A program made the translations under genes and the position numbers. Shown in pieces: positions 12,249 through 43,635 of a stretch of DNA of 64,000 nt (within the stretch, counting starts at the first letter, position 1; each line of letters starts with the position of its first letter). The stretch is from a virus: the UHGV virus genome UHGV-1352914; one strand, given 5' to 3'. Below the pieces are notes generated by a model. The model was not told the DNA's origin. It saw only the letters and a list, made by a program, of their open reading frames with translations, and did no database searches.

Positions 12249-12253
12249 ACCTC

Positions 12254-20912: not shown

Positions 20913-21226
20913 AACCCGTTCCAACGTACACCGTCGAAGGGTTCAAATCTAACAAGGCGGCGACTGGCCGCCTTGCTGAACTCCTTCATGACCCGGTAAT
21001 GGAAGAAGCTCTCTGCATTGTTCAGTCAAAACTTAATGCGACGTTACAGCCTACACTGGAAGCCGCCGCATTGAATGGAGCTTTCGCGGCTGGAGCCAAA
21101 TCCGTCATTGCCGCTCTCTTCAATCTGGCCGAAGAAAATGAAGAAACCGAATCCCCGGTAACTATGATGAATCACCCCATGACCGAGCGTAATGCTTGGA
21201 TTAACTCACTTTCACCCAACAAGTAA
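20909..21226 (+). CDS. Hypothetical small protein
   Basis: 105 aa, start overlaps portal stop. Confidence 0.4.
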   Translation: MKPVPTYTVEGFKSNKAATGRLAELLHDPVMEEALCIVQSKLNATLQPTLEAAALNGAFAAGAKSVIAALFNLAEENEETESPVTMMNHPMTERNAWINSLSPNK

Positions 21227-27990: not shown

Positions 27991-28379
27991 ACAACGCAGA
28001 AATACAAATCCTATTCCCTACACCCGGCGACTGGACCAAGCTCATTATGAGCGTAATCTACGTAGACACACTGGGCTTTACGCACATCGACCAATACGAT
28101 GAGACCACGATGCCGAAGGAGCAGATACCCGCAATGGTCAAGGCTATCGAGGCCATTGCCGCTCTCGATGAACAGTGGCAAGCATGCCAAGTCTGGGCAC
28201 GAATGGGATGGGTTCCTTCCCCTTCCGACCCTGCTGACAAGGCCCCCGCAATCCTTCTGACTGTCGAGGCTACCGGGGATTCCGGGGGTACAAAAATATT
28301 TACTCCTGACCAATATCCCCAGTTCGTACTGACCGATAGCGGCACGCTATCCTTCTTCAACTTCTTCACCAAAGGATGA
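27987..28379 (+). CDS. Hypothetical protein
   Basis: 130 aa, overlaps upstream stop (ATGA). Confidence 0.4.
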   Translation: MNNAEIQILFPTPGDWTKLIMSVIYVDTLGFTHIDQYDETTMPKEQIPAMVKAIEAIAALDEQWQACQVWARMGWVPSPSDPADKAPAILLTVEATGDSGGTKIFTPDQYPQFVLTDSGTLSFFNFFTKG

Positions 28380-28439
28380 TAATCATGAGTTTACTCGAAC
28401 TTCTCGACCTACTTGGCTGGAAGCGCAAGTAGCACATTT

Positions 28440-28472
28440 CCCCGGAGGGGTTATCCTCCGGGGATTTTTATT
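28440..28472 (+). terminator. Intrinsic terminator (ccccggagg/cctccgggg + ATTTTTATT)
   Basis: Seen in sequence. Confidence 0.6.
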
Positions 28473-28517: not shown

Positions 28518-29144
28518 ATGTCAGAGACATCAAACACCAAACAGAAGGACGGCCATAATGTTATTATGGTCGATAAGCAGAATGGATTAACCCTCGTTCT
28601 GGCCAGCCATAGGGTTCGCATTCCCAACGAGGAAATTAAAGGAAGGGTTGAAGACCTTGCGGTTATCGAGAACCCGTGCACCGTTACGACGAACCTTCCG
28701 GCTAAGAACGAATTCAGTTTTCGTGATGAATCCGTAGAAACATCGGAAGCAGTTGAGAAGGCATTCGACGACGCATGCCTAGAAGAAAACCAACTGTTCT
28801 GCCCTATCTGTGGAGGCCTACTAAGAGAAGAACATCGCGGCAACTACGTGTTCGTAGAGTGCATGAGTTGCTCGCTGGCCGTGCAGGGGAGTGATGACGA
28901 TGACCCGGAGACAGCCTGTGAAGAGGCATGGAGAGAGGCTCGATTCTTCCTCGACAGTTGTCCTCCGGTTCTGCGTCTTCAACCCGGCGATAAGTTGCAT
29001 TTTATCGACAGGCCTCTTAAATATCAGTATTACGCCGTAGTTACGGACGTTGATGTGAAGGATAGCTGGATAAGGACCGACAAGGGTTCATGTCGCCCTG
29101 ACGACGTGCTTAAATGGCCGTGGGAAATTAAACAAGCAGAATAA
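28518..29144 (+). CDS. Zinc-ribbon protein with Lar-like (restriction-alleviation family) domain
   Basis: 'CPICGGLLREEHRGNYVFVECMSCSLAV...DDDDPETACEEAWREAR' matches Lar-family pattern CPxCGG...y.VxC..C...eA..W..R. Confidence 0.5.
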   Translation: MSETSNTKQKDGHNVIMVDKQNGLTLVLASHRVRIPNEEIKGRVEDLAVIENPCTVTTNLPAKNEFSFRDESVETSEAVEKAFDDACLEENQLFCPICGGLLREEHRGNYVFVECMSCSLAVQGSDDDDPETACEEAWREARFFLDSCPPVLRLQPGDKLHFIDRPLKYQYYAVVTDVDVKDSWIRTDKGSCRPDDVLKWPWEIKQAE

Positions 29145-29146
29145 CC

Positions 29147-29608
29147 ATGAACACGTTGCATCTATCTATCGCGCAATACTTCGCGCTTGCGGCTCTTTTC
29201 GTGCTTGCGGGCGTAGCTTTCCGCGCCTTGGGAGGGAGTGCCTCCACCGCAATGGCCAACAGGCTGAAAGCTCACTGGAAGCTCATTAGCATTGAGACCA
29301 ATAGCTACCGGACAAGAGGAAGCGAGTACACTCTATATGAGCGCAATGAAATGAATGATATGTACAACCGCCTCTTTGATGCCGCTACCCTGTGGATTAT
29401 TGTTGGACTAGTCGGACTGACGGTAAGTATTATTGTTGAGTGCCTCTTCACGCTTCCCGCGCCTCCGCTCTATGTCCTCTCCCTCCTCACTGCATGGATT
29501 GCCGCATGGTATCTCTTTGTGGTCATAGCTTACTACATAAGCATGGCGGTGATTATGCAGATGACCCAATATAACCTCTATCGTCAATACCCAAAAATTA
29601 AATTCTAA
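29147..29608 (+). CDS. Membrane protein (3 TM helices)
   Basis: Hydrophobic segments at residues ~10-30, 70-95, 100-130. Confidence 0.5.
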   Translation: MNTLHLSIAQYFALAALFVLAGVAFRALGGSASTAMANRLKAHWKLISIETNSYRTRGSEYTLYERNEMNDMYNRLFDAATLWIIVGLVGLTVSIIVECLFTLPAPPLYVLSLLTAWIAAWYLFVVIAYYISMAVIMQMTQYNLYRQYPKIKF

Positions 29609-30018
29609 TGAAGAAGTACGAAGTAAAACTTGGAATGATTGTCCGCGTCAATCATGGTCCCTGTGGCCGCGTCGTGGAAATCGACAACGAACGGGCTACC
29701 TACCCGTACAAGGTACGCTATTCGGGAGAATTAGTGGAGTGGGCCTCCGCTGACCAGATGGAAGAAGTGTTAGATGCACCGGAGGAATCTGTCCGTGCCG
29801 TTTGCAATAACACCACTAAACCTCGGCAACCATTCAAGAGAGGCGATAGGGTACAATACGTTCCTCGTGGCTGGGTAAGCTACGAAGAAGAACCTATCCC
29901 CTTTCAGGAGTACGCGGTTTACAACGATGAAGACAACGACGGCTGGGTATGTATTGACGGAGTGACCACCAGCTACTTCAACAGTGTTAAGTACTTTGAC
30001 CTTAAACTAATCGACTAG
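29608..30018 (+). CDS. Hypothetical protein (two small beta-barrel-like repeats)
   Basis: 136 aa; repeated 'G..V.....G.G.V.EID' pattern. Confidence 0.45.
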   Translation: MKKYEVKLGMIVRVNHGPCGRVVEIDNERATYPYKVRYSGELVEWASADQMEEVLDAPEESVRAVCNNTTKPRQPFKRGDRVQYVPRGWVSYEEEPIPFQEYAVYNDEDNDGWVCIDGVTTSYFNSVKYFDLKLID

Positions 30019-30020
30019 CC

Positions 30021-30137
30021 ATGAGCACAACTCTATTTATTAGTATCTCGGACATCATCGCATGGGCGGCTATTGTTCTGTGCGTACTCGTCCTTCTCGC
30101 CCTGTGGGCCGTTGAAACCATCAATAAAAAAAATTAA
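30021..30137 (+). CDS. Small hydrophobic peptide (38 aa)
   Basis: ATG 30021 to TAA 30135-30137; single TM; below ORF-track cutoff. Confidence 0.25.
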   Translation: MSTTLFISISDIIAWAAIVLCVLVLLALWAVETINKKN

Positions 30138-30141
30138 AAAA

Positions 30142-31191
30142 ATGAAAGCCGAAGATTTAGGTTGTCCTTTCTGCAAACACCATAACCTCCCGGAATCCAC
30201 GGAACCCTGTGCATCCTGTGACATGTATTTCAGTAACTATGAACCAATGGATACCGTGGATACCGTGGATACCGTGGATACCGTGGATACCGGGTTTCAC
30301 CGGAGTTGCTCCCACTGCATCTACCGTAAAACCCCGCTGACGCAATTCCCCTGCATGAAATGTGCCGTCACTCCCGGACTTCCCTGCTACGCCACGGATT
30401 ACCCGTGGGTAGAAGAGGAAAAGGAAGGTGAGCAGTTGCCGGAATCCATGACCCCTTGTACGAGTTGCAAGCACGCGAAAGAGGCCAAGGAAGGAGAGCA
30501 GTTGCCGGAATCCGTGGATGAACCCGTAAGCTATGTTCTCCCCTCCTGTGATGATTGCAGGTATTTGACGAGACGGCTGGAAGAGGAACCCTGCCTCTCC
30601 TGCTACAAAGCTTCGAACTTCACTATCATCAAGGAACCCGTGGATGGCACGGATGAGAATGATGATGTCATTGAACCTTGCAATAGTTGTGTCCATAGGG
30701 ATAACCTCCGTTGCAATCCTCCATGCTCTCATTGCCGACAGGAGCGGGGAATTGAGTACCCGGAATATGAAGAGGATGAGCAGGGAATAGATTGCCCGGA
30801 ATATGAAGAGGCTGAACCGGGAATAGATTGCCCAGAATATGAAGAGGATGAACCGGGAATAGATTGCCCGGAATATGAGGACAAGGCTTCTGGGTACAAA
30901 GGAATCGTGCCAAAGCATATTACCGATATGTTTATTGAACGAATGAGGGAAAATGTACTACGGCTCGCCGACGAATATAACTCCTGCCCCCGCCCCCGTT
31001 ACTGCCCGTATTGTGGAGAAGTGCCGGAGGTCGTAGAGGAAACCATCTACCCCGGAGAAAAGCATTGCTACGTTGTCTGCAATGGAGCCAATCTCCTTCC
31101 TCATAGCATCAGCGTTCATGGCAGGAGCCGGGAAGAAGCGGTCGCCAACTGGAATAGCTTCGCCTTATCTCTGGCCAATAAAGGAAAATGA
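30142..31191 (+). CDS. Cys-rich multi-zinc-ribbon protein with C-terminal Lar-like domain and internal tandem repeats
   Basis: ORF-track start 30073 is non-ATG; ATG 30142 (MKAEDLGCPFC). >=7 CxxC pairs; (DTV)4; 3x 'IDCPEYEE[DA]EPG'; C-terminus 'CPYCGEVPEV...HCYVVCNGANL...SREEAVANWNSFA' Lar-like. Confidence 0.5.
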   Translation: MKAEDLGCPFCKHHNLPESTEPCASCDMYFSNYEPMDTVDTVDTVDTVDTGFHRSCSHCIYRKTPLTQFPCMKCAVTPGLPCYATDYPWVEEEKEGEQLPESMTPCTSCKHAKEAKEGEQLPESVDEPVSYVLPSCDDCRYLTRRLEEEPCLSCYKASNFTIIKEPVDGTDENDDVIEPCNSCVHRDNLRCNPPCSHCRQERGIEYPEYEEDEQGIDCPEYEEAEPGIDCPEYEEDEPGIDCPEYEDKASGYKGIVPKHITDMFIERMRENVLRLADEYNSCPRPRYCPYCGEVPEVVEETIYPGEKHCYVVCNGANLLPHSISVHGRSREEAVANWNSFALSLANKGK

Positions 31192-31292
31192 GCAACCACT
31201 GGATAACCATTAGCGGGGGAGGATTCGTCCTCCCCATTAACTCCATTCTAGTCATGGATGAAGAACTCGCCGCATAACTTACAATCAAAGAC

Positions 31293-31382
31293 ATGTACAC
31301 ATTAACTGGATTCCTTCTCGGCCTTTTATTCTACTACCTCGTCGAGAACAACGATAACGACAACGACCCTATCCCTGCATGA
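31293..31382 (+). CDS. Small hydrophobic peptide (29 aa), stop overlaps next ATG (ATGA)
   Basis: MYTLTGFLLGLLFYYLVENNDNDNDPIPA; coupling geometry supports reality. Confidence 0.3.
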   Translation: MYTLTGFLLGLLFYYLVENNDNDNDPIPA

Positions 31383-31855
31383 AAATAAATAGAAGAGGAC
31401 TAATCGTTCATCCCGGCCTGAAGCATCCGAGACGGCCTCGGCATAGTACTCCCCCGGTAAAGAACATCCCGAAGGGCTACATTGCCACCGGGGAGATTGC
31501 CAATAAAATCGGACGCAGTTCCGTATGGGTAATCCACGCCCTGAACCGATTGAAGGTTGAACACGTGCGTTGCGGGCATACCATCTATTGGGAAGGGAAA
31601 GGAGCCGAGGAATATATCGGCACACAAGTGCGGGGATTATATGACAGTATCCCGGAGGGGTATGTTGATGTAGCCACCGCATTGGAGACTACGGGCTTGA
31701 AGTCGCCGGGATACCTAACTACCCTGTTTAAGCGGGGCAAAGTTCAGCGTGTGCGGTATCGTGATGAAAGCGACCCCCGTGGCCGTAGGACACGATTCGC
31801 GTACAAACTGGTTGACTTGTTGTCCCATTTAGGATTAAATGGGGAAGTCCTATGA
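31379..31855 (+). CDS. DNA-binding protein with two HTH (MerR/excisionase-like) repeats
   Basis: 'YIATGEIANKIGRSSVWVIHAL' and 'YVDVATALETTGLKSPGYLTTLFKRGKV'. Confidence 0.45.
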   Translation: MKINRRGLIVHPGLKHPRRPRHSTPPVKNIPKGYIATGEIANKIGRSSVWVIHALNRLKVEHVRCGHTIYWEGKGAEEYIGTQVRGLYDSIPEGYVDVATALETTGLKSPGYLTTLFKRGKVQRVRYRDESDPRGRRTRFAYKLVDLLSHLGLNGEVL

Positions 31856-32205
31856 GAACCACGTATTCTACAACTAGAACCGTACAGAAGGGCCAGAGCA
31901 ATCAACAGGCATTGCTCGGTCTCCTTCTGAACATTGACCTCCTTGACTCCTCCCTTACCGCGGATGGCGTCCGTGTCCTTCTGTACATGCACGCCAACGG
32001 ATTTGAGAAGGAGTACGACAGTCCCTCAATTAGCGAGGGAACTCGCATCCATATATCTTCTCTTTACTACGTCCTGCGCAAGCTGGAAGAGAAAGAATAT
32101 ATCACGTATTCCGGGGTTAGGGGTTCGAGGAAACAAAGCAAGAGCCAATTAACCTCGAAGGGTATCACCTTCTGCCGGGACGTCTTCCGGCCACAAACAA
32201 TCTAA
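31852..32205 (+). CDS. Winged-helix (MarR/PadR-like) transcription regulator
   Basis: 'LLGLLLN...LTADGVRVLLYMHANG...ISSLYYVLRKLEEKEYI'. Confidence 0.45.
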   Translation: MRTTYSTTRTVQKGQSNQQALLGLLLNIDLLDSSLTADGVRVLLYMHANGFEKEYDSPSISEGTRIHISSLYYVLRKLEEKEYITYSGVRGSRKQSKSQLTSKGITFCRDVFRPQTI

Positions 32206-32213
32206 TCAACAGC

Positions 32214-32648
32214 ATGGAAACAAATAATCTCAATGAACAGACGGAAGTCGCGGTCAAGCTCTACAACATGGCCGAACTTTCCACCCCGTGGGACCAGCTC
32301 ACGGCTGACAAGAAGAAGCCCTACATGAATATGGCGGGCAAACTAATCAAGGGAGAGGCTGACATTTTTGCCCAGCTGACGGCGAAGTACTGTGTCCAGC
32401 TTGGCGTACCTAGCAAGTACAAGACCATCATCTCCGGGATTATCAGTGCCGCCCTTGGTGCTTTAGCTATGTTTGGAGCGTTGGGGCAGAGCAGTTGTAC
32501 CTACGCGGATGTGAGTAAGGACCGCGCAGTTATCTGCAATGGCGATGGTTGTGTAATCGTTAGCCCCGGAAGGTTGACGTTTACGCAGGAACAACCTAAG
32601 AGCGAAGTTGCTCCCGTCGTTATCCCCAGCAAGGAATTCTGCAAATAG
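32214..32648 (+). CDS. Hypothetical protein with one TM segment
   Basis: 'IISGIISAALGALAMFGALG'. Confidence 0.45.
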   Translation: METNNLNEQTEVAVKLYNMAELSTPWDQLTADKKKPYMNMAGKLIKGEADIFAQLTAKYCVQLGVPSKYKTIISGIISAALGALAMFGALGQSSCTYADVSKDRAVICNGDGCVIVSPGRLTFTQEQPKSEVAPVVIPSKEFCK

Positions 32649-32650
32649 CT

Positions 32651-33211
32651 ATGGCTCAAGAGTACAGTGAGATTCCACAAGCTCCTGACCTCTTTAATCA
32701 TCCCGTACCCTCGGTTCCCGTGGGTACGGAGATGCTTAATGAGGCCCCGCCGTTTGATTCAATGCCGGACCCGATTGCCCCGGTTTATGGAGAGAGCGAC
32801 ATCGGGGTGTTCCATACCCCTGTGTATAATGACGACCCCCTCATGCGCAACCGGGAAGAGAGCATGTTCTCCGTCGTGTATGACCCCACGGATTCCGGAC
32901 CTAACGCGGCGGTCATGTTTGTGGCTGGGGTTATTGTATCTGGAAGCGCAGTTTTTAACATAGGTGGTGCTCCCGGAAATTTACACCCCGTAGCCAGCGG
33001 AGAAAGGGCACCCCTTGATGATGATATTATATGGTATCTTAACGTCAATAGAGATGATTATGGTCTGTCTATGGTAAGTAGTGTGCCATCGCCGGATGCC
33101 TTCTTTTCTCTTCCCGTAGCTCGAACTCGAAAAGGAACCAACGGGTACATTCAGCAATTACACAGAGGGGCCGTATTCATTGGTTCTGAATTTGTCTTTG
33201 GTCCTGCTTAA
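32651..33211 (+). CDS. Hypothetical protein
   Basis: 186-aa ORF. Confidence 0.45.
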   Translation: MAQEYSEIPQAPDLFNHPVPSVPVGTEMLNEAPPFDSMPDPIAPVYGESDIGVFHTPVYNDDPLMRNREESMFSVVYDPTDSGPNAAVMFVAGVIVSGSAVFNIGGAPGNLHPVASGERAPLDDDIIWYLNVNRDDYGLSMVSSVPSPDAFFSLPVARTRKGTNGYIQQLHRGAVFIGSEFVFGPA

Positions 33212-33223
33212 CCTCCCAAACCC

Positions 33224-33976
33224 ATGACCTACATCTATATATTCACTTACAGAAGAGACCAGCCAGATGCGCTGGAATGTGTACGTTGCACGAGAAAAAC
33301 TCTCCCCCATGCAGTTATTACTGTAGTCGACGATGGAAATTCCCCATGTACGGAAGGCGCAGAAACCCAGTTCCTACAGGCTGGAGCCACACATTATGAG
33401 CAAAGCCAATTTAATCGAAGGGGAAATCTTAACGGTCCCGAATGTGTGCGAGGCATCCTCTCCTACCTAGCACAAAAGGCCGAAGACGAAGACATTGTGA
33501 TAAAGCTAGATTCCGATACTTGTCTCCTTTCTACTGACTGGATTGAAGACATGCTAGCGCAGGGGAAGAGCATGGCTGGATGTAGCTCACGCTATACTAC
33601 ATGGAAGAACATTTACTATATACACGGAACATGTTATGCCATGACGGGGAAGCTGGCAAAGCAAGCATTTCAGAAATCTTTGTCTTGGACAGATTGGTCA
33701 GAAACGGCTCCGGAAGATTTAGAGATATATCGACTGGCTTCCACTATCGTGGGAGAGGAAAACATTCTTAAAGAGTTCCCTTGGACGCCATCGACCCCTT
33801 CGGCAAGATGGACGGCATGGAACTGGGTGAGCTTCACCGTAACTCCGGAAAAGTATAAACACTTTTCGGTGGTCACCTTCGGTATGTTTATGCCCTCCTA
33901 CAAGCCGAGAAGCCTTAGGGCATTAGCCATGAAGGAGTTACGTGAATGTGTCTATCCTTCTGACAATTCAATGTAG
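33224..33976 (+). CDS. Glycosyltransferase family 2-like protein
   Basis: N-terminal 'IYIFTYRR...L..C...VITVVDDGNS' and DxD 'IKLDSDT'. Confidence 0.55.
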   Translation: MTYIYIFTYRRDQPDALECVRCTRKTLPHAVITVVDDGNSPCTEGAETQFLQAGATHYEQSQFNRRGNLNGPECVRGILSYLAQKAEDEDIVIKLDSDTCLLSTDWIEDMLAQGKSMAGCSSRYTTWKNIYYIHGTCYAMTGKLAKQAFQKSLSWTDWSETAPEDLEIYRLASTIVGEENILKEFPWTPSTPSARWTAWNWVSFTVTPEKYKHFSVVTFGMFMPSYKPRSLRALAMKELRECVYPSDNSM

Positions 33977-34026
33977 CAGGACAACTGGCTTATCGATTCC
34001 GTACATCGAAATGTCAGGACGTTAAA

Positions 34027-34083
34027 TCCCACGGAACCCACGGAACCCACGGCCAAATGGCCACAATGGGTTCCGTGGGTTCC
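34027..34083. repeat. Intergenic palindromic array: (CCCACGGAAC)x2.5 ... 17-nt spacer ... GGGTTCCGTGGGTTCCC
   Basis: Seen in sequence; ~50 nt upstream of promoter at 34137. Confidence 0.65.
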
Positions 34084-34136
34084 CTTGTGTCTCGCCCACA
34101 GGCGTGTGCGGCTGTGTCATACCAGTTAAAAATTTC

Positions 34137-34164
34137 TTGACCAGAAGCTTTTCCTGTGTATGAT
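34137..34164 (+). promoter_or_regulatory. sigma70-like promoter TTGACC-N16-TATGAT, leaderless geometry (ATG at 34172)
   Basis: Seen in sequence; ORF-track start 34160 lies inside the -10 hexamer. Confidence 0.55.
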
Positions 34165-34171
34165 AGCGGGC

Positions 34172-34837
34172 ATGGACAACAACTTCCATTATATTATTAG
34201 CGCGTATAACCCTTCCCTCCATTGGCCGGAGAGGGAATCAAACCTAATCCACTACACGGTCAATTATCTTAAATCCCTGAACATTTCCGGCGAGAACGTT
34301 ACCGTCATGTCCGAGGACCTCGGCGTTCTCTCATGGGCCAGAGCGGAGGGGCTGAACGTGGCCCGTGTCCCTGACGCGCCTGACGAGGCTATCCTCTCCA
34401 TCGCCGCAGAGCATGCGGGAAAGAATATCATGGTGCTCGACACCCAATGCCCGGTACGCGAAGCGGACCTCCTTGACGTTATGGCCAGCCAAATTGTCAC
34501 CGAGAAGGATGTCATCTTCATCTCTGCCTACATGGGATTGAAGCGGACGAACGTCGAAGACTACCCAGAATGGACTGGCATCGTTGATGGTAGCGTGTGG
34601 GGGTTCCGGCACGATAGCGACCTTAAGGTCATTAAGAGGATGTGCAATACCTACCTCGTCTATCATGACGCGTTCGCTGGTCACTTCGGGGTGAGCCTCG
34701 ATTACCAGTACGATAAAGATGTACTGGACGTCGCCGTGAAACGCGGCTGGGAAAAGAACGCGAGCACCGCCCCCTGTTCTGCGGATTATCCCCGGCGCGT
34801 ACAAGTTATGGTTGACAAACCTAAACAAAATGTCTAA
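34172..34837 (+). CDS. Hypothetical protein (possibly nucleotidyl-/glycosyl-transferase-like)
   Basis: Start moved to ATG 34172 (MDNNFHY); alpha/beta composition; adjacent to GT2 gene. Confidence 0.4.
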   Translation: MDNNFHYIISAYNPSLHWPERESNLIHYTVNYLKSLNISGENVTVMSEDLGVLSWARAEGLNVARVPDAPDEAILSIAAEHAGKNIMVLDTQCPVREADLLDVMASQIVTEKDVIFISAYMGLKRTNVEDYPEWTGIVDGSVWGFRHDSDLKVIKRMCNTYLVYHDAFAGHFGVSLDYQYDKDVLDVAVKRGWEKNASTAPCSADYPRRVQVMVDKPKQNV

Positions 34838-34851
34838 GCTTTATTCACCAC

Positions 34852-35304
34852 ATGAACACAAATCAATTGTATTTTGACGGGAGCCTTGGTCAGTTCATTC
34901 GCAAGGCTCGATATGAACAGGTAAGCGTAGATGCCTCATTGGAAGTCCAGCATGGAATATCCTCACTTGTCCTCCAGTTTGGCGCAGGATTTAAGGGAGA
35001 CCTCCGATTTAATATCTCCCATGCCTCTGCCCTTCTTGGCAACGTCTCCACGTCAAGCCCCTTTACATGGAAGTTTCAGTTAGCCCAGCTCAATGCCGGG
35101 GGAATACCTGTATGGAAGACGGTCGCGTCTGGCATGACGGCCCCGGAGAAACCCGGAGGCACTGCCGATACCGTTATCCTCCCCACCGACTTCTTTGAAT
35201 TAGACCCTGCCGAATATCCTGCCGGGACCTACTGGATGACTGTTGAGTTCTCTGATACAGTTGACTGGACCCGCACCTTCCCCCTCACACTTCAAATTAT
35301 CTAG
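34852..35304 (+). CDS. Hypothetical beta-rich protein
   Basis: 150 aa. Confidence 0.45.
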   Translation: MNTNQLYFDGSLGQFIRKARYEQVSVDASLEVQHGISSLVLQFGAGFKGDLRFNISHASALLGNVSTSSPFTWKFQLAQLNAGGIPVWKTVASGMTAPEKPGGTADTVILPTDFFELDPAEYPAGTYWMTVEFSDTVDWTRTFPLTLQII

Positions 35305-35306
35305 CC

Positions 35307-35681
35307 ATGAAATTGGATTTATCCCACATCCTGCAACTCTACCCCGTCCTGAAAATCCTTCATTACCAGACAAGGGAGGGATTCCACCATGAACGGTATG
35401 ACGACGCAGTAGAAGAATTGGGCGGCATTGCCGACAGTTTCATTGAAACCTATCTCGGACTACATGGCCGCGACTGGACGGCGAAGCCCGTGTTGGTGCG
35501 CCCCGTAATGCCAGATACTACTGCCGCGTGCATTGGCTTGTACGAAACCGTCATCCTGCGGGACCTCGTTCCCTACCTCTACACCGTTGCCGGGAATGAA
35601 CCCACGCTAAGGAAACTGGCAGAAGACTTTGAGCAGAGTGCTCGAAAGATTTACGGACTACTGAACAATTACAGCAACTAG
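35307..35681 (+). CDS. Hypothetical protein
   Basis: 124 aa. Confidence 0.45.
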   Translation: MKLDLSHILQLYPVLKILHYQTREGFHHERYDDAVEELGGIADSFIETYLGLHGRDWTAKPVLVRPVMPDTTAACIGLYETVILRDLVPYLYTVAGNEPTLRKLAEDFEQSARKIYGLLNNYSN

Positions 35682-35686
35682 AACCC

Positions 35687-36196
35687 ATGCCCACAACAAC
35701 TCGCGTCCGAGAATTTTTTCTTTGTTCCGACGGCCCGGAGAGCAACCCCGAAGTAATAGCCACGGTACTTCCTCGGCTTGACGGGGTTTGCTCCCGCGCC
35801 CGGTCCTTGACGTGGGGCGTTATTGCCTATTCCCTCTCTCACTTCAACCTGCCCTTCGGGGTTGCCTTGGAGAACATGAGGAACGGTTATTGTGCCCGCG
35901 TCGTAGGAACGCCCATTGGGGAGGAAACCGAGGATGGGGATGAAGTCGCCGACGTTACCCCTTGGTTCATCCTGCAATCCTTTAAGACGGAAAACAACGA
36001 ATGGGACTACCGTTTCATGGCGTTGGAACCGATAGAGGCAGGAGCCGCCATTGATATGAAGAGAGATTATCTACTTCCCGATGGGTGGTATAAAGTCGGA
36101 GAAGAGGTAACTCTTCGCAACGATTTCATCGTCTCCTTCTGTTGGGAGATTGCCATTCCTGGGGACCCCACGAAAACAGAAACCGCCTCCGTTTAA
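35687..36196 (+). CDS. Hypothetical protein
   Basis: 169 aa. Confidence 0.45.
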   Translation: MPTTTRVREFFLCSDGPESNPEVIATVLPRLDGVCSRARSLTWGVIAYSLSHFNLPFGVALENMRNGYCARVVGTPIGEETEDGDEVADVTPWFILQSFKTENNEWDYRFMALEPIEAGAAIDMKRDYLLPDGWYKVGEEVTLRNDFIVSFCWEIAIPGDPTKTETASV

Positions 36197-36217
36197 CCCA
36201 AACAATCCAAACCACTT

Positions 36218-36457
36218 ATGTATAAGCTAGTCGTAAGAGACTACATTGATGTAGGAATTATTCAGGTGAAGTATGAGGGAATCATCTTTGCGGAAGTCTT
36301 CTACCGCAATGATGAAGAAGATACCCAATACCTTACCAAGGACAGTGCTCTGAAAATGGCTAAAGAATTTGCTCGTAGCCTTTTTGCCTATGAGGCCTTC
36401 CCAACCACGAAGGGCATTAGCCTACTTCCTAAACACATTGCAATCCACGAGGAATAA
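36218..36457 (+). CDS. Paralog 1 of 7-member small-protein tandem family
   Basis: 79 aa; shares beta-strand + 'T.K.A.K.A...AR' helix pattern with the next six genes. Confidence 0.55.
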   Translation: MYKLVVRDYIDVGIIQVKYEGIIFAEVFYRNDEEDTQYLTKDSALKMAKEFARSLFAYEAFPTTKGISLLPKHIAIHEE

Positions 36458-36460
36458 ACC

Positions 36461-36709
36461 ATGACTAACGAAATTAGCATTATTGAGAATAAGAGAGTGG
36501 GAATCCTCAAGGTGAAACACAAGGGTAATCTCATTGCTAGCCTTAACTATTGTCGGGAAGGGCATGAAGATGAAAGATGTTATCCCACGCGCGAACAGGC
36601 CATAGAGTTGGCAAGGACAATTACCCGCCGTCTCGTCGCCTCGAATCCTGTTATGACAGACAGGGGCATTGACTTTTGCCCAAAGGACTGTATCTTCCAA
36701 GACGAATAA
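36461..36709 (+). CDS. Paralog 2 of tandem family
   Basis: 82 aa; 'LNYCREGHEDERCYPTREQAIELARTITRRL'. Confidence 0.55.
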   Translation: MTNEISIIENKRVGILKVKHKGNLIASLNYCREGHEDERCYPTREQAIELARTITRRLVASNPVMTDRGIDFCPKDCIFQDE

Positions 36710-36718
36710 ACCAAATCC

Positions 36719-36958
36719 ATGAACGACAAAGTAAGAATTTTCGAGGATGTAGTGGGTGGCAGATTCGAAGTAGTCCATGACGGAGCTGGTGTTGCCAGTT
36801 TCTACTACTGCACCAATGAGAACGAACAGTGCTACCTAAGCAGGAAAGCGGCAAAGAAACTGGCCACGAAAGTTGCCCGCTACATGGTTAGCAGGGGGAC
36901 CTCCCCCACAACTAAGGGAATAGGACTAAACCAAATCTATTTTAACATCGATGTCTGA
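36719..36958 (+). CDS. Paralog 3 of tandem family
   Basis: 79 aa; 'FYYCTNENEQCYLSRKAAKKLATKVARYM'. Confidence 0.55.
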   Translation: MNDKVRIFEDVVGGRFEVVHDGAGVASFYYCTNENEQCYLSRKAAKKLATKVARYMVSRGTSPTTKGIGLNQIYFNIDV

Positions 36959-37199
36959 TACTCTAAATATTACCGTCGTAGATGACCCCATTATCGGATA
37001 TTTCTGGGTCCTGCTTGAAAACCGTTGCGTTGCCACTTTTTACTATTGCACGAGAGGTGAGGAAGGACTTTTCACTAAGAAGCAAGCAAAGAAGCTGACC
37101 GAGAAGCTTGTCCGCAAAATTGAGAAGAGTACGACTATCAAAACCAAAAAAGGATTTAAGCTCGTCAAACAGGAAAGGGACAACACCAATGAACAATAA
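36951..37199 (+). CDS. Paralog 4 of tandem family
   Basis: 82 aa; 'FYYCTRGEEGLFTKKQAKKLTEKLVRKIEKST'. Confidence 0.55.
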   Translation: MSDTLNITVVDDPIIGYFWVLLENRCVATFYYCTRGEEGLFTKKQAKKLTEKLVRKIEKSTTIKTKKGFKLVKQERDNTNEQ

Positions 37200-37425
37200 T
37201 TCAGATACCTGTATTTGTGACGACACCTCTGCCGGATTTTTCCGTGTTATGCACGGAAAACGTTGTGTTGCCATTTTCAACTATTGCACGGAAAATGAGA
37301 GAGGCTTCTTCACCAAGAAGCAAGCCGAGAAACTGGCAAACAAGCTCGCCCGTAAAATGGAGAAGAGCACGGTCGTAGAAACAATAACTGGCCTTGAGCT
37401 GAAAAGGAACAACATCAATGACTAA
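37189..37425 (+). CDS. Paralog 5 of tandem family
   Basis: Internal Met of ORF 37108 taken as start (MNNNSDTCICDD); 'FNYCTENERGFFTKKQAEKLANKLARKMEKST'. Confidence 0.5.
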   Translation: MNNNSDTCICDDTSAGFFRVMHGKRCVAIFNYCTENERGFFTKKQAEKLANKLARKMEKSTVVETITGLELKRNNIND

Positions 37426-37675
37426 CGAAAAATATTTACTGGAAACCTTCTTAATGGAATATCCGCGAGCAGGAATCCTTGCGGTGATTCATCGAAACTA
37501 CCGTATCGCCCTGTTCCCCTATTGCAAGAATGTGGACGAGAAGGGAGTTCCGACAAGAGACTGCGCCCTCAAAATGGCAATCGAACTTCGTGACAAGATT
37601 AAGAAGTTAACGACGGAAGAATCTGACACGGGAATTACCTTCGTCGAAAGGAACAACACCAATGACCAACGATAA
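37418..37675 (+). CDS. Paralog 6 of tandem family
   Basis: 85 aa; 'FPYCKNVDEKGVPTRDCALKMAIELRDKIKKLT'; start overlaps previous stop. Confidence 0.55.
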   Translation: MTNEKYLLETFLMEYPRAGILAVIHRNYRIALFPYCKNVDEKGVPTRDCALKMAIELRDKIKKLTTEESDTGITFVERNNTNDQR

Positions 37676-37898
37676 AGTCTTCGTCCGATACACGCGGGAT
37701 GAGGCTATCATCCTCTTCAACTATCAGCCCGTTCTCCGCATACCTACCAAGTACCAGCTGGGCGACCAAGAGGTCGATATGTGTGAGGAATTAGTGGACT
37801 GGGCTAATCAAATCGTTGAGGACCTTAACGAGCATGTCATATTACCAGATATAAACAAAACCAAAAACGAAAATGAAAGTAGGACCCGGAAAAGTTAA
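37662..37898 (+). CDS. Paralog 7 (most divergent) of tandem family
   Basis: 78 aa; same length/N-terminal 'MTNDK'; overlapping start. Confidence 0.45.
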   Translation: MTNDKVFVRYTRDEAIILFNYQPVLRIPTKYQLGDQEVDMCEELVDWANQIVEDLNEHVILPDINKTKNENESRTRKS

Positions 37899-38319
37899 GA
37901 CCAGATTTAAGTGCGGCGACGTTGTTCTTCGGATAGATACGGGGAGATGTGGCATGTGTGGGGATAGCATCCCAACAGGGTCTATCCTTCGGGTAGTGTC
38001 CGACGAGGATGTTGCTGGTGTCGTTCGTGTCCAATATCCCCAAGCGGATGATGAAGACGAAGAGATACAGGATGTTATGTGGTACGAAATCGACCACTTA
38101 CCCGCGAAAGCCAAGGTAGAAGAATTCTCGGATGCCGTGAGGGTGTCCATGAATGGGGACGCTATTGCCACCATTCTCACGGACATTGCCACCCCATTGG
38201 GCACTCTTCACTTCGAAAGCTGGGCCAGAGAAATTGCCCAGTCGATGGCGAACATTATTAACCTTCAAATCTCATTGGGGAAGCTAACCTCGGACGGAAT
38301 CAAAGTAGAAAAAAACTAA
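37873..38319 (+). CDS. Hypothetical protein
   Basis: 148 aa; 'G..VV.RID.GRCGMCG'. Confidence 0.45.
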   Translation: MKVGPGKVKTRFKCGDVVLRIDTGRCGMCGDSIPTGSILRVVSDEDVAGVVRVQYPQADDEDEEIQDVMWYEIDHLPAKAKVEEFSDAVRVSMNGDAIATILTDIATPLGTLHFESWAREIAQSMANIINLQISLGKLTSDGIKVEKN

Positions 38320-39083
38320 TGACAAGCAAAAACAAAATTAAGGAAATACAGAAGTGGGCGGGAACTACGCCCGACGGTATCCTTGGTGATAAGACCATTG
38401 ATGCTATATGGAAGAAGATACAACCGGAACCCACGGTTTCCGTGGGACCTATGGACGTCCCGGAAACCACGGGTTCCGTGGGTCCCGTGGAATCCCCGGC
38501 AGAGATTATCCGCAAAGGAATGGCCAAGAAGATTCTCAACATGGAGGACTACAAGATTACAGGTCCCGATTCTCTGCGCGTAACTCGCCTCCCCTCTGGT
38601 GACGGCGGTGGCAAGTGGGAGATTGCAGGTATCTGTGATGGGATTGAACCCAAGGAATTCAATCTAATCAAATCCATGATGGACCGGGGCGACAGGGATG
38701 CGGCATGGGAGGAATGCCTCCGCTATGTTCTCGCCAATACGGAACCGTTGGTTGCCAAGGGAGTTGCAGGATGCTACGCCATTGAGTTCATGCTTCGCGA
38801 CATGACCTTCAACATGGGTGTGGCGGGAACGACTAAGGTTGTCCAGCGCATGCTCGACATTGATATTGACGGCAAGTGGGGGAAAAATACCCAAGCCAAA
38901 TGGACGGACGCCATTCAATCATGGGAGGAAAGCGAAGTCCTCGATATGCTGGACCGCGCTTGTCGTGCCCGCTATTGCTCCATTGTAAGAGCCAATCCGG
39001 TGAAGGCGAAGTTTCTCTCCGGCTGGTCCAACCGATGCAATGCGCGACATGCTTACGCTCTTACTCTGTTGTCAAGGAAATAA
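38319..39083 (+). CDS. Endolysin-like protein with peptidoglycan-binding repeats
   Basis: 'WAGTTPDGILGDKTIDAIWK' and 'IDGKWGKNTQAKW' PG_binding-like repeats; linker 38420-38500 carries CCACGG palindromes. Confidence 0.5.
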   Translation: MTSKNKIKEIQKWAGTTPDGILGDKTIDAIWKKIQPEPTVSVGPMDVPETTGSVGPVESPAEIIRKGMAKKILNMEDYKITGPDSLRVTRLPSGDGGGKWEIAGICDGIEPKEFNLIKSMMDRGDRDAAWEECLRYVLANTEPLVAKGVAGCYAIEFMLRDMTFNMGVAGTTKVVQRMLDIDIDGKWGKNTQAKWTDAIQSWEESEVLDMLDRACRARYCSIVRANPVKAKFLSGWSNRCNARHAYALTLLSRK

Positions 39084-39573: not shown

Positions 39574-40012
39574 TCAATTACAGGAAAGCATCCGTGCGTG
39601 TACTGAAAAAATCCGCTCAAGGAATCGGTTCTATGCCTCCCTTCCTCTTGGTCGCGAGGGTGAGCTGAAACTGCCCAGAAACCAATGGGCCTATTTTTTA
39701 CGGGGGAAAGTAGGAATTCGTTATGACGGAGAAACCCTTACCTCTTCGGTCACACAGGTTAAAACTCGTGAAGAAGTTCAACTGCCAAGAATTATTGATG
39801 CGGAGAGAAGCCATAAATTACTTGTCATACAAGGATATGTTATTGACAGGCGAACGAACCGAACATATTATCGGGGCGAGACAGTAAGTTTTCCGCGGGG
39901 AGAACCAATGCAATTAACGTTGAACGGGCATATTAGCATGATGTGGACACCCCCGCTCCCCGGTGCAATTATGCCGTTCTTTCAATCCAATATACATGGC
40001 TCTGATTCCTAA
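39500..40012 (+). CDS. Hypothetical protein (74-nt overlap with previous ORF)
   Basis: 170-aa ORF; overlap unusual, start uncertain. Confidence 0.35.
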   Translation: MKIFNLFRKSHEQEQLENELTQNLNQLQESIRACTEKIRSRNRFYASLPLGREGELKLPRNQWAYFLRGKVGIRYDGETLTSSVTQVKTREEVQLPRIIDAERSHKLLVIQGYVIDRRTNRTYYRGETVSFPRGEPMQLTLNGHISMMWTPPLPGAIMPFFQSNIHGSDS

Positions 40013-42887
40013 TACCACGGCCTCCACTCCACAGCCTCCGACAATACCCATTGGAACCACGGATTCCTCGTGGCGCAATGGGTTCAGTCCTGACAGGCCA
40101 ATGGGTGAGCCGATAATTAACTTTCCCACTCCGGTGGTAAAAAACGTGATGTTCTTCGTTGAGAGGATTGCCAAGAATCCCAGCGAGATTACCACTGAAT
40201 TGGGAACACCGTTCGTACCTACTGCGGGTACGACCTTCCTCCCGTTCATGCGGGATGCAGTTCTCGTGCATGTCGAACCCGTCAATGAGGCGGCGAGACA
40301 GCACGTTTATCGTTTCTACTACATGGTCCCGCCGGAACAGCAGTTCCGATATAACATTCAGGACATGAAGAAAATCCGTGACGGCTATACCTTAAAGGAC
40401 ACCGTCGCTACGGGTAAGTTCATGGGGCCGGATGCAGACACGGAAGAGTTGAAGGACTTCTACGAGATTACACGGGAATGGGTGGAACCCTTGGATTCCG
40501 CGTATGCCCCGCTTCCCCTTGGCTCGTTTGACCCCAGCAACGAAAAGCTGGACCCTGACTTCTATGACCAGCACTTCTACACGGCCTACGATGCCCAGCT
40601 GGTATTTGAAGAAGTAGTCCAGTTTGAAGAAGAACACCTACGCAAGTATTTTCGTAAGGTGGTACGCGTGTACAAGACCCTGCCCGGCCCGGTGGTTAAA
40701 GAGTTCGTCCCTTATAACATTTGGCAGAAGGGAGATACGGTGTGGGATGAAGGTGGTCCGGGAACGAACCAGCCCGAATCTGAATGGGTGGCACAGACTG
40801 CAATTAAGTTATCGAGAGAGGTCTGGGCCGCGCCGCTTTGGCCCGTCGATGGTGGAGGGAAGGAACCGGGTCAGGCCCGCATTCCTCACATGCCCCTCCT
40901 TGAACTGGACAATAAGCCCGTTAGTGCTGGCTGGGACAAGGGCAGTTATCCGAGTACGCAGATGTACACCCTTGTATCTATGTACAAACGGAACAGTAAC
41001 ATTGCGGAGAAAGAGGAACAGAACAGCCTCTCCGGTAATTGTTGTAACCCGGATTCCCGTTTTGTCCGGTGCATCAATACAACCGTGACGACTAGCCAGT
41101 CCGTCGACTGGACAGCGAACGGCGATGTCCCTGCGATTGACCCTCCTGACCCCGGCGAGAACTGTAGCCAATGGCGTGTAGATTCCTCTGTGGTAGTACA
41201 TGAAGGATATAGCCACAAGGAAACGCGAAAGAGTTGCACCACCTACGACCAGATTGATGAATTCTGGGAATCCTCATTCGATAGGATAACCAATCAGGTC
41301 TATCCTGTACTGCGGAAGATTGTACATAATCCGAGCACTGACTTCGACACCGATTGGCAGAAGGAAGGATTCACCAAATACACGGACGCAGTTGGCAATA
41401 CCTACTATGGCCGGAAGTTGGAGAAGCCTGTTACGCTGGTTCCCGTCACCGTCCCTGACATGAGGTGGACCACTATTGAAAATGTGGAATCTTGGGACCT
41501 GACGGTTCAAGAAGATTCCGTAACTCCTACCGAGATACTGGGCATTCCCTATTTGAACTACGGAATAAGTGACCCTAACTACCCAGAGTACCAAGGTTTT
41601 ATGGGCGTTAGCGGGATTCTTAGTGCTCAACCCAACGGTTCTAACTCTGACAGGGGAGGAAACTTCGGCATCTATTTCCGTGATAAACGATTGTGGAACC
41701 TGTATATTCAGAACAGCTATCCTACAACTTATTCGCCGGGGACCTTCTGGCTTGACTACGCATACTTCTCCGTCAATCCGCAAGGCCCGTGGTACACCGA
41801 AGACGGACAGGTTAAGATAGATATGGAGATGGTTATTCAGTCCACCCTGTATGCCAAAATTGTTACGAACGAAACTTGGACCTTCCCCGTAGGAAACGCC
41901 CAAGGGATTAGCTTCGTTCAACGAGATGCTTCGTATACTTCTGAAATGATGTTCTCCGTAGGGTCGCTTCCTTCCGGGATACAGGGGGCATATCTGGACA
42001 TCCAATATGGGCGGCTTAACCTAGTAGTCATAGCTAATCCCAGAGGGTCTGCAATCAATGGCACTATTCCCATTCTGATTAACGGTGAGAAGGCGTTCGA
42101 CATTGACGTAGAAACCGTGGACCTAGATACGCAAAAGGTTCTTACGGTTCAGAACACCACTGCCGCTAAGCAGGAATACCATGCTGGGGATTATGTTCTC
42201 AATGCGGAGGTAGTCAATAAACTGACGCTATCCTACAGTGGGCAAAAGTTTCCCTATTTCCAATTTAATCTTACCCTGTGCGCACTTACGGGGTCTACCT
42301 TTAAGAAGGTCGCGACAAGTGATAAGATTCAACGCGTCGTCCTGCGCCAATGGGTGAACCCCTGTTACGCCGTAGATAGTTACATGCAGATTCCGGGAAT
42401 CGGGTACTACAAAAAATATACCACGACGATGAACTACAGTTTCCCTGCCGTGTTCGGTTCGGTTAGTTGGGTTCCGTGGGATACGAGGCCCGACCTCTCT
42501 GGCAGACAGGAAGGCAAGTACTTCCCGCAGACCAAGATGATGCGGGACAGTTACTCCGGCCCCTGCACCGCCGTGGTAGAGGAAGCCTTCTCCCCCGATG
42601 GCACATGGCCTAAAGGCTGGGGCCTTGGGACGTCGGTACAGTTCACGACGAACAGCGGGTATTTCTCTTCGCCGCTTTGCGATTACCGTCTGCCCGCATG
42701 CCTCCACGGCCCGCTGACTATATCCGTAACCATTGGCAGTCAGGACGCCAAGTGGCTTCCCGGCGGGTTTAATACAAACTTTCCGGGAACTACCCACACA
42801 GATTGGAAACCCGTGACCTCCTATTACGCATCCCCGTGGAACGGAGGCATGATGTGCAAGAAAGTAACCATTTATCCACCCAGTTAA
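39963..42887 (+). CDS. Large tail protein (nozzle/spike/fibre class, putative)
   Basis: 974 aa, W/Y/G/N-rich beta composition. Confidence 0.5.
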   Translation: MQLCRSFNPIYMALIPNTTASTPQPPTIPIGTTDSSWRNGFSPDRPMGEPIINFPTPVVKNVMFFVERIAKNPSEITTELGTPFVPTAGTTFLPFMRDAVLVHVEPVNEAARQHVYRFYYMVPPEQQFRYNIQDMKKIRDGYTLKDTVATGKFMGPDADTEELKDFYEITREWVEPLDSAYAPLPLGSFDPSNEKLDPDFYDQHFYTAYDAQLVFEEVVQFEEEHLRKYFRKVVRVYKTLPGPVVKEFVPYNIWQKGDTVWDEGGPGTNQPESEWVAQTAIKLSREVWAAPLWPVDGGGKEPGQARIPHMPLLELDNKPVSAGWDKGSYPSTQMYTLVSMYKRNSNIAEKEEQNSLSGNCCNPDSRFVRCINTTVTTSQSVDWTANGDVPAIDPPDPGENCSQWRVDSSVVVHEGYSHKETRKSCTTYDQIDEFWESSFDRITNQVYPVLRKIVHNPSTDFDTDWQKEGFTKYTDAVGNTYYGRKLEKPVTLVPVTVPDMRWTTIENVESWDLTVQEDSVTPTEILGIPYLNYGISDPNYPEYQGFMGVSGILSAQPNGSNSDRGGNFGIYFRDKRLWNLYIQNSYPTTYSPGTFWLDYAYFSVNPQGPWYTEDGQVKIDMEMVIQSTLYAKIVTNETWTFPVGNAQGISFVQRDASYTSEMMFSVGSLPSGIQGAYLDIQYGRLNLVVIANPRGSAINGTIPILINGEKAFDIDVETVDLDTQKVLTVQNTTAAKQEYHAGDYVLNAEVVNKLTLSYSGQKFPYFQFNLTLCALTGSTFKKVATSDKIQRVVLRQWVNPCYAVDSYMQIPGIGYYKKYTTTMNYSFPAVFGSVSWVPWDTRPDLSGRQEGKYFPQTKMMRDSYSGPCTAVVEEAFSPDGTWPKGWGLGTSVQFTTNSGYFSSPLCDYRLPACLHGPLTISVTIGSQDAKWLPGGFNTNFPGTTHTDWKPVTSYYASPWNGGMMCKKVTIYPPS

Positions 42888-42891
42888 TCTC

Positions 42892-43635
42892 ATGGCATTC
42901 ATTACCAAATCCTATTTAACCTATCGCAATGTTTGTGACGAGCTTTGCATGCTCATTACAAACCAGCCGCCGTCCAAGTCCAACGTTGACTTCCGTCGCA
43001 TATTGAAGGAAGCGCAGAACCTCCTGCTGAATGAGGCCACGGTATCCCCGGATTCCGTGGAAACCTTGGACTTTGAAGGAATCCCTCACGGGGGTTCTAT
43101 CTCCCTGCCCGAAGAATATGACAGTATCGTTGAGGCATGGTCGCCCAGCGGCAAGAAATACCACATCATTGACCGGGCCATGTTCGAAAGCAACACGTGG
43201 TTCCGTTCCGAATACCCGAAGCATGACAGTGGCTATCACGCCATCATGCTGGACATGGGACTGAACGAGCAGAACCTCCGCACCTATTCCGTCCTGTCTG
43301 GCAGTAGCGGCATCAACGACAACCCCGCGAGCAACGTCATGACGGTTTCGGCACGGTGCGCATTGCGCGGCCTATCCCTCAACATTTATGATGACGCGGC
43401 ATGGGAAGACAAGGAGGTTCGTATCTACCCCGGATGTCTTCCCGCATTGAAGGCAATGATGCTGGCCGTGGTCTATAATGAGCAGGGCAACACTCAAATG
43501 GGGACGGACAGCTATGGTCTTGCCGTCAAATACCTGAACGACCACCTGCGCAAATATCGTCAGGGTACGTATCAGGCTCCGAATATTATTCAGAACGGCG
43601 GCATCATGCAGTGCCCCGGACTTAACCTCATGTAA
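42892..43635 (+). CDS. Putative virion protein
   Basis: 247 aa. Confidence 0.45.
   Translation: MAFITKSYLTYRNVCDELCMLITNQPPSKSNVDFRRILKEAQNLLLNEATVSPDSVETLDFEGIPHGGSISLPEEYDSIVEAWSPSGKKYHIIDRAMFESNTWFRSEYPKHDSGYHAIMLDMGLNEQNLRTYSVLSGSSGINDNPASNVMTVSARCALRGLSLNIYDDAAWEDKEVRIYPGCLPALKAMMLAVVYNEQGNTQMGTDSYGLAVKYLNDHLRKYRQGTYQAPNIIQNGGIMQCPGLNLM

Follow-up and report, generated by a model that had tools for sequence, protein, structure and literature searches.

Why should a phage devote a run of consecutive small genes to what look like variants of a single protein, and what could such a set of variants do? The question is raised by UHGV virus genome UHGV-1352914, of which one stretch of 64,000 nucleotides (nt), hereafter the window, was analysed; it comprises most of the ~70 kb genome of an uncultured phage. 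Seven consecutive small open reading frames (ORFs) on its + strand, confirmed at the coordinates given by a sequence-only reading of the same DNA and labelled p1–p7 in order, had been proposed there to be seven diverged paralogs. With high confidence, comparison with related genomes indicates that the locus is a lineage-specific mobile accessory cassette, the paralogs of which expand, contract and swap halves by unequal recombination. What the proteins do is answered more tentatively: we infer that they bind host factors, and the evidence on both sides is weighed below.

Six paralogs and an unrelated partner gene

Pairwise BLASTP of p1–p6 gave identities of 23–47% at 22–76 bits, and in a BLAST comparison with all 368 ORFs of the window these six matched one another exclusively (E = 2e-22 to 5e-4). 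A hidden Markov model (HMM) of the family likewise picked out p1–p6 and no other ORF in the window. Judged by these comparisons, p1–p6 are genuine paralogs and the array is one of six members extending from 36218 to 37675, so that the earlier idea of one family expanded and diversified within a single genome stands, with one member fewer than proposed.

The array opens with p1 (36218–36457, type Aa), a protein of 79 amino acids (aa) with an isoelectric point (pI) of 5.3, followed after a spacer of 3 nt by p2 (36461–36709, type Bb, 82 aa) and after another of 9 nt by p3 (36719–36958, type Cc, 79 aa). From there on neighbouring genes overlap: p4 (36951–37199, type Dd, 82 aa, pI 9.3) shares 8 nt with p3, p5 (37189–37425, type Ee, 78 aa) shares 11 nt with p4, p6 (37418–37675, type Ff, 85 aa), which is the final array member in most relatives, shares 8 nt with p5, and p7 shares 14 nt with p6. 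The sequence-only reading had described coupling through ATGA or overlapping junctions; the four overlaps agree with it, but none of them is a 4-nt ATGA. The start of p5 is placed at the ATG at 37189, its reading frame being open further upstream, to a TTG at 37108.

The copies are arranged head-to-tail with a repeat period of 238–244 nt, and the DNA identity between paralogs does not exceed 70% (p4 and p5, repeat family D1, are 70% identical over 182 nt). A conserved mid-gene segment (repeat family D2, 64–88% identity) recurs on the + strand every 238 nt, at 36789–36813, 37027–37051, 37265–37289 and 37503–37527, and codes for V-A-x-F-x-Y-C. The overlapping junctions are conserved as well: AAAGGRACAACAYCAATGA, within which one gene ends and its successor starts, is found on the + strand at 37174–37203, 37403–37432 and 37647–37676 (repeat family D3). 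At the protein level p1–p6 share the pattern G-x-F-x-V … V-A-x-F-x-Y-C, then T-[KR]-x-x-A-x-K-[LM]-A … R. The motif described earlier is thereby recovered, as a hairpin ending in A-x-F-x-Y-C and a helix T-[KR]-x-x-A-x-[KE]-[LM]-A...R, with R in place of the Cys of F-x-Y-C in p1.

The seventh ORF, p7 (37662–37898, + strand), codes for an acidic protein of 78 aa (pI 4.7) and is a partner gene, not a paralog. It had no BLAST match to p1–p6, either pairwise or in the comparison with all 368 ORFs of the window, and an initial weak hhalign signal (P = 3e-4), which arose because natural chimeras (P0166 and P0168) sat in the p7 alignment, fell to a probability of 0.3% once these chimeras were removed; p7 was accordingly rejected as a seventh paralog. 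What it has in common with the array is limited to the conserved junction between genes, AAAGGAACAACAYCAATGAC, and the opening residues MTN[DE]K. A 9-nt microhomology common to p5 and p7, TTCAACTAT, accounts for the chimera P0168 and is not evidence of homology.

Judged by its homologues, p7 corresponds to the C-terminal one of two domains in a protein of 127–145 aa, the N-terminal one being SH3-like; this two-domain form stands after the array in both phage lineages that carry it. With homologues 74–100% identical, p7 is far more conserved than the array family and similarly narrow in distribution (61 clusters), and no helix-turn-helix (HTH) motif and no Pfam match were found in the partner protein. 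The next ORF of the window (37873–38319, + strand, 148 aa), which has 26 nt in common with p7 and 1 nt with the beginning of the endolysin gene, is homologous in residues 9–54 to the SH3-like domain of the long partner (E = 4e-6, profile A5). On the strength of this homology, the partner of the window has lost its SH3-like domain and the homologous domain opens the next ORF instead. In sister lineages (L080, 10906–11871; L101, 18683–19252) two genes in tandem straight after the fibre follower encode the SH3-like domain (R-F-[KR]-x-G-D-x-V-R) with C-terminal domains of other kinds attached to it. The C-terminal domains of L080 resembled DUF2829/Tad2 by eye; Pfam gave no confirmation and the assignment was dropped.

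Turnover of the array and its distribution among relatives

Relatives were retrieved via the flanking 169-aa gene, which yielded 32 IMG/VR loci 93–96% identical in that gene. Contig look-ups added more, giving a comparison set of ~45 related loci in which the array genes were typed by HMM; all comparison genomes are metagenome assemblies. The number of copies per genome ranges from 1 to 7 and at least 21 gene orders occur among these loci, the order of the window (Aa Bb Cc Dd Ee Ff) being unique within the sample. Locus L035 carries 3 copies (Bb Cd Ff) and L037 carries 7 (A2a2 Bb C2c2 Ee Dd Cd Ff), despite flanks that are 99.0% and 99.6% identical, from which it follows that turnover is fast. 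Invariance of the array across relatives, which the sequence-only reading had named as speaking against its proposal, is thus not observed.

Hybrid genes are frequent (Cd, Ed, De, Ce and C2d): their N-terminal half, with the β-sheet, comes from one type and their C-terminal half, with helix and hairpin, from a different one, and 21 combinations of N- and C-terminal modules were counted in 123 cluster representatives. The switch point of the hybrids is the most conserved part of the gene, namely the mid-gene segment repeating every 238 nt together with the T-K-K-Q-A-K-K-L segment that follows it. We explain the gain, loss, reordering and fusion of copies by unequal homologous recombination with crossover in the conserved mid-gene segment (…V-A-x-F-x-Y-C … T-K-K-Q-A-K-K-L…), so that a β-sheet half from one type ends up in front of a helix/hairpin half from a different one. 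Some array genes are also fused in frame to genes downstream (P0121, P0127 and P0134).

The ratio of nonsynonymous to synonymous substitution rates (dN/dS) is 0.27–0.52 per type; of the flanking genes, the upstream one has 0.13 and the endolysin 0.20. Each type is therefore under purifying selection, and the array genes are functional, although less constrained than their flanks. Two antisense ORFs overlap the array on the − strand, at 36422–36778 (118 aa) and 36963–37280 (105 aa); since conservation and dN/dS below 1 sit in the + strand frames, they probably result from the K/E-rich composition of the coding strand.

These observations bear directly on the suspicion that the array is functionless duplicated DNA, or that its variability is an artefact of metagenome assembly. 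Tandem repeats are easily mis-assembled, every comparison genome is of this kind, and fragments and frameshifted copies do occur in L001, L016, L029 and L031. Against this, the frames are open in ~45 loci with dN/dS below 1 for every type, the start/stop junctions are conserved, the paralogs are too different in DNA (at most 70% identical) for repeat collapse during assembly, the same chimeric types are found on several contigs and in several cluster members, and the family is kept at 45–48% identity in a second phage lineage (see below). The explanation is thus scarcely credible.

The wider clade was sampled with the 130-aa follower of the tail-fibre-like gene (the two genes together occupy 25858–28379, + strand), by which 80 loci were retrieved. 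In distant relatives (41–49% identity) fibre, follower, ~1 kb and endolysin succeed one another, with both array and surrounding island absent. An intermediate relative from a sister lineage, L081 (53% identity), has island genes of 240, 151, 141 and 163 aa leading straight into the endolysin, and has no array, no p7 and no 148-aa ORF, so that presence and absence do vary between relatives with the same flanking genes, as had been suggested for a check. Because the endolysin of the wider clade (L082–L130), a protein of 193 aa related by phmmer to the 254-aa endolysin of the window (E up to 1e-4), lies ~1 kb past the fibre follower, the ~10 kb island at 28518–38319 is a lineage-specific site of insertion that separates the fibre module from the lysis module.

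A second, unrelated lineage, represented by contigs of 103–173 kb, carries two array copies and the partner. There a tail-fibre-like gene, homologous to the 710-aa gene of the window, comes first, then the follower in a form of 116 aa, two array members sharing 45% and 48% identity with p2 and p3, the partner (127 aa) and a 121-aa homologue of the 124-aa gene that lies upstream of the array in the window; further downstream are small ORFs and genes of the NADAR-DUF488, PIF1 helicase and SprT-like kinds. The 127-aa partner is a full-length homologue of the long p7 form (43–46% identity). Occurring jointly in two lineages, array and partner thus make up a linked block that is mobile.

The same neighbourhood invites another interpretation, that the array proteins are virion-associated accessories, either host-range factors linked to the fibre or small internal proteins ejected with the DNA, comparable to the internal proteins of T4, with the acidic partner as chaperone. 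The second-lineage array directly follows the tail-fibre-like gene and its 116-aa follower, that of the window clade lies between the fibre and lysis modules in the endolysin operon, five genes (fibre, follower, phrog_858-like gene, array and partner) are common to both lineages, and basic cargo with an acidic partner would be compatible with such a role. However, array composition is uncoupled from the fibre allele, since fibres 96–98% identical are accompanied by different arrays and identical arrays by fibres only 69–90% identical. A viable sister lineage lacks any array, no structural PHROG was matched, and a range of 1–7 copies disfavours a stoichiometric structural role; we regard the interpretation as improbable. 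A role as lysis-timing regulators acting on the co-transcribed endolysin or a holin is suggested by the tight packing of the endolysin operon and by the next promoter unit, which holds genes of likely holin or spanin size. This role is very improbable, given that the second-lineage array does not adjoin lysis genes, that array-less relatives keep the same endolysin context, that hydropathy is negative in all array proteins and no membrane segments are found, and that six diversified copies are hard to square with timing.

Predicted fold and proposed function

None of p1–p7 reached threshold in Pfam, PHROGs, NCBIfam or PADLOC, and neither 60 family members nor the family consensus did so in the family libraries scanned. 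The family profile had no match among PDB sequences, the array (megablast, blastn) and the family consensus (tblastn) had none in 50,697 GenBank phage records, and the best Foldseek match in BFVD was no better than E = 0.2. A search by HMM through all 1.84 billion representatives yielded 23 proteins only, two of which are unrelated repeat proteins. A word-indexed search gave 163 clusters (90% identity), nearly all of 76–86 aa and many on contigs of 60–72 kb; the family contigs looked at belong to the two phage lineages, apart from one of 1.6 kb with different neighbours. By the outcome of these searches the array proteins are a new and extremely narrow ORFan family, in line with the earlier remark that the family was not recognised.

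AlphaFold models of p5 (m7127dcaa072d, from a 6-sequence alignment) and p2 (m23fe98719b4e, from a 60-sequence alignment) agree in predicting β1-β2-β3, a loop, a helix of ~17 residues and β4-β5, with a mean predicted local distance difference test score of 77–78 and low confidence at the C-terminal hairpin. The shared sequence motif coincides with the predicted β2-β3 hairpin and the helix. Conserved positions are G, V, A-x-F-x-Y, T-x-x-x-A, the hydrophobic helix positions and T-x-x-G-h-x-L, the remaining positions being variable, and the family alignment has no conserved stretch of 7–10 columns. As they are mostly small, hydrophobic or aromatic, we read the conserved positions as the protein core. 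The net charge differs widely, the pI ranging from 5.3 (p1) to 9.3 (p4), with p2 neutral and p3, p4 and p5 basic (8.8–9.3). No structural or otherwise mundane function, the outcome that the sequence-only reading had set against its own proposal, was assigned.

The predicted β3-α core recalls AP2/ERF and integrase Arm domains, in which a three-stranded β-sheet packs on one helix, and the main rival explanation of the array is that its products are nucleic-acid-binding proteins of AP2/integrase-Arm type, each paralog with its own DNA or RNA site; they would then control genes of the phage or the host, or shield nucleic acid. The Pfam family Arm-DNA-bind_4 (PF14657) gave sub-threshold matches in 17 of the 60 members (best E = 0.015, helix region only), no other Pfam family recurring in more than four of them. 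In addition, the start of the helix, T-K-K-Q-A-K-K-L-A, is like the contact helix of double-stranded RNA-binding domains (dsRBD): a PDB profile search gave PKR at E = 0.9, and hhalign against hand-entered dsRBD seeds gave P = 0.002 over 18 helix columns only. The basic character of p3, p4 and p5 fits the same explanation; the acidic p1 and neutral p2 do not.

Membership in these families is nevertheless not supported. AP2, Arm and dsrm all stay under their curated thresholds: the 22.3-bit cut-off of Arm-DNA-bind_4 is unreached, AP2 (PF00847) gave nothing at E up to 10 with the 60 members and the consensus, hhalign against hand-entered AP2 seeds was empty, and neither the α-β-β-β-α order of the dsRBD, with its N-terminal helix, nor a dsRBD HMM match was found. 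In AP2 domains conserved Arg and Trp residues on the β-strands contact the DNA major groove. In the array proteins such residues are not conserved, strand conservation being confined to G, V, A, F and Y, and the basic strand residues vary from paralog to paralog. The array family furthermore adds a loop of 8–12 residues and a C-terminal β-hairpin, and its members range from acidic to basic and stand alone, attached to neither an HNH nuclease nor a recombinase and with no recombinase nearby. We conclude that the predicted core resembles AP2/Arm domains, without extending this to membership. Since 1–7 copies among 99% identical genomes would also be unexpected for a regulator, nucleic-acid binding is considered unlikely. 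If true, phages would have in this family a new branch of the AP2/Arm-like fold whose members stand alone.

The explanation that we put forward instead, tentatively and as somewhat less than an even chance, is that the array encodes a set of small binders of differing specificity, directed against host factors that vary, for instance defence systems, and serving counter-defence or host takeover, perhaps together with the partner protein. Six co-transcribed, mostly overlapping genes give soluble proteins of ~80 aa with one small predicted β3-α-β2 scaffold, and the conserved, unrelated, acidic partner gene closes the set. Purifying selection keeps each type, with the core conserved and the surface and net charge different. 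It is because of this combination that the products are most likely binders with different specificities. A panel of this kind, with host factors as targets, fits the patchy distribution, fast turnover, conserved core with variable surface, purifying selection and the tifA/SegB precedent (see below). That the locus is accessory, patchy and fast in turnover is seen from its absence in L081, the 1–7 copies, the 21 or more gene orders and its recurrence in the second lineage.

Several points weigh against this explanation. No similarity to characterised anti-defence proteins was found, no dedicated library of such proteins having been compared, and the fold resemblance is limited to a DNA-binding domain and is weak. 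There is no overall positive selection by dN/dS. The array lies in one operon with the endolysin, so that early expression is not evident, and it has no distinctive early promoter, the same promoter type being found genome-wide. Hypervariability is not universal, the two-copy array being unchanged in all six second-lineage loci examined. Finally, part of the chimeras could be assembly artefacts; several hybrid types do recur on many independent contigs.

The binder panel invites comparison with known variable loci. In T-even phages, segmental amplification of small anti-defence genes has been described, of tifA in T4 and driven by SegB in T6 (10.1101/2022.04.14.488369; PMC13096335). The likeness lies in the tandem rise and fall in copy number of a small accessory gene by recombination in otherwise near-identical genomes, and the head-to-tail copies with a period of 238–244 nt, the hybrids and the copy variation of the present array conform to it. 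The T-even amplifications, however, consist of identical copies, arose under laboratory selection and have a known target (ToxN, Septu or OLD), whereas the array is made up of old, diverged copies (23–47% identical in protein, at most 70% in DNA) without the near-identity of a recent amplification, occurs in natural populations and includes intragenic hybrids.

With the internal protein (IP) locus of T4-like phages the array shares small proteins, a late-gene location near structural genes and variation between close relatives. That locus shows strong presence/absence and allelic variation, and at least one of its products, IPI*, blocks a host restriction system. The T4 IPs begin with a capsid-targeting sequence that the head protease cleaves, and they do not form a set of paralogs of one fold recombining with each other, as the array proteins do. 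As in acr-aca loci, a variable set of small ORFans is found directly upstream of one conserved gene, here that of the p7-domain partner, across unrelated mobile elements. Aca proteins are HTH repressors and the Acr genes of one locus are usually mutually unrelated, whereas here the partner has neither an HTH nor a Pfam match and the array genes are paralogs. Among eukaryotic viruses, the multigene families of African swine fever virus and the poxvirus K3L accordions are tandem paralog families with strain-variable copy number and links to host range or immune evasion. The array resembles them in having tandem paralogs that differ in copy number between strains; their proteins are much larger, and half-gene shuffling is not their main mode of diversification. 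Taken together, we rate the locus as of the viral paralog accordion or hypervariable accessory locus kind, with a new ORFan family and its conserved partner as the building blocks.

Phage escape from defence systems by amplification of small inhibitor genes is known from laboratory evolution, and the present locus may show a natural, long-evolved accordion. Its copies are diverged, still expand and contract between 99% identical genomes, and exchange halves to give hybrid proteins. A bolder form of the proposal, which we hold to be doubtful, is an undescribed natural diversification device in which a two-half binding scaffold is shuffled by unequal recombination in a tandem array, gains new specificities thereby, acts with the acidic partner against host defences, and moves between unrelated phages sharing a host. 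If the products are inhibitors of host factors, the array would be a collection of natural variants, already at hand, of a single scaffold, and the conserved neighbour gene a possible marker for finding similar cassettes. Whether host factors or nucleic acids are bound, a new ORFan family and its partner are defined in an uncultured gut phage lineage.

Operon, neighbouring genes and possible host

The nearest promoter upstream of the array is a sigma-70-like one at 34137–34164 on the + strand (TTGACC, 16-nt spacer, TATGAT), which sits in the sole sizeable intergenic gap, at 33977–34159. From this promoter to the end of the endolysin at 39083 gaps do not exceed 21 nt and many genes overlap. Because of this tight spacing, the array is predicted to be co-transcribed with four conserved upstream genes (34160–36196, + strand; 225, 150, 124 and 169 aa), p7, the 148-aa ORF and the endolysin (38319–39083, + strand; phrog_315, E = 2.5e-17, PG_binding_3), the last gene of the operon. 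The 124-aa gene (35307–35681), the homologue of which lies near the array in the second lineage, has a weak phrog_858/DUF5856 match. Promoter-like sites of the same type, TTCTTGAC(A/C)-N16-17-TAnnAT, are found in nearly every intergenic gap on both strands, e.g. at 12252, 13220, 22478, 25798, 28482, 34137, 39097, 44789, 54549 and 55596. Since such near-consensus sigma-70-type promoters precede almost every transcription unit, the phage seems to depend on the host RNA polymerase for all of its transcription, and its promoters do not fall into obvious classes.

An 11-mer, GGAACCCACGG, occurs 25 times throughout the window with at most one mismatch (1.7 expected), for example at 34033–34083, 38426–38486 and 48699–48790. 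Three of its copies make up a long inverted repeat within the intergenic gap, immediately ahead of the array-operon promoter, and its clusters in the endolysin and in an ORF of 3221 aa lie in the frame coding for E-P-T linker repeats.

Upstream of the operon, a strong intrinsic-terminator-like hairpin at 28439–28464 (+ strand; 11 bp, 8 GC, followed by a T run) divides the fibre genes from the island holding the array. The tail-fibre-like protein itself (25858–27990, 710 aa), the homologue of which in L040 matches fibre PHROGs, is mosaic among relatives L051–L078, with 44–98% identity next to neighbouring genes more than 90% identical. The array had been said to adjoin Lar-like proteins. This is not supported: the ORFs concerned (28518–29144 and 30073–31191) lie 5–8 kb upstream and have Lar-like zinc-ribbon matches below curated thresholds (Pfam E ~2e-3; TIGR03655 E = 2.6e-5, under the cut-off). 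Relatives carry one to three Lar-like genes of variable length in the same island. On the far side of the endolysin, genes of 960 and 247 aa in the close relative L045, which correspond to 39963–42887 and 42892–43635 of the window, are separated by an IS605-type OrfB/TnpB gene (6409–7623 of L045; Cas12f1-like_TNB).

Recognisable genes of the window include a primase-helicase, DNA polymerase, helicase, large terminase, NAD-dependent ligase and the endolysin; the remainder, an ORF of 3221 aa included, gave no match. The closest large terminase among the 50,697 GenBank phage records is only 27% identical, and a scan of 185,579 species-representative genomes of GTDB with p6 and the large terminase gave no matches and thus no sign of a prophage. 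The sole hint of a host is a stretch of 982 nt (20054–21035), 80% identical to Akkermansia phage Chantilly (ON453895), which covers the C-terminal part of a 756-aa ORF after the terminase region and the next small gene; the lineage may accordingly infect Akkermansia. Nothing relevant was found in the literature on Akkermansia phages of such a type.

Neither Pfam nor PHROGs gave any match for the 3221-aa ORF (44869–54534). In size and position it brings to mind giant virion-packaged proteins such as the N4-type virion RNA polymerases, but nothing in the present data supports that likeness. At the other end of the window, ~900 nt of non-coding DNA (1544–2444) contain two terminator-like hairpins, two strong promoter-like sites, an alternating AT run (TATATATACGTATAGG … ATATATATATATTATG) and repeated TAACA/TTAACA words, and may be an origin or a regulatory region.

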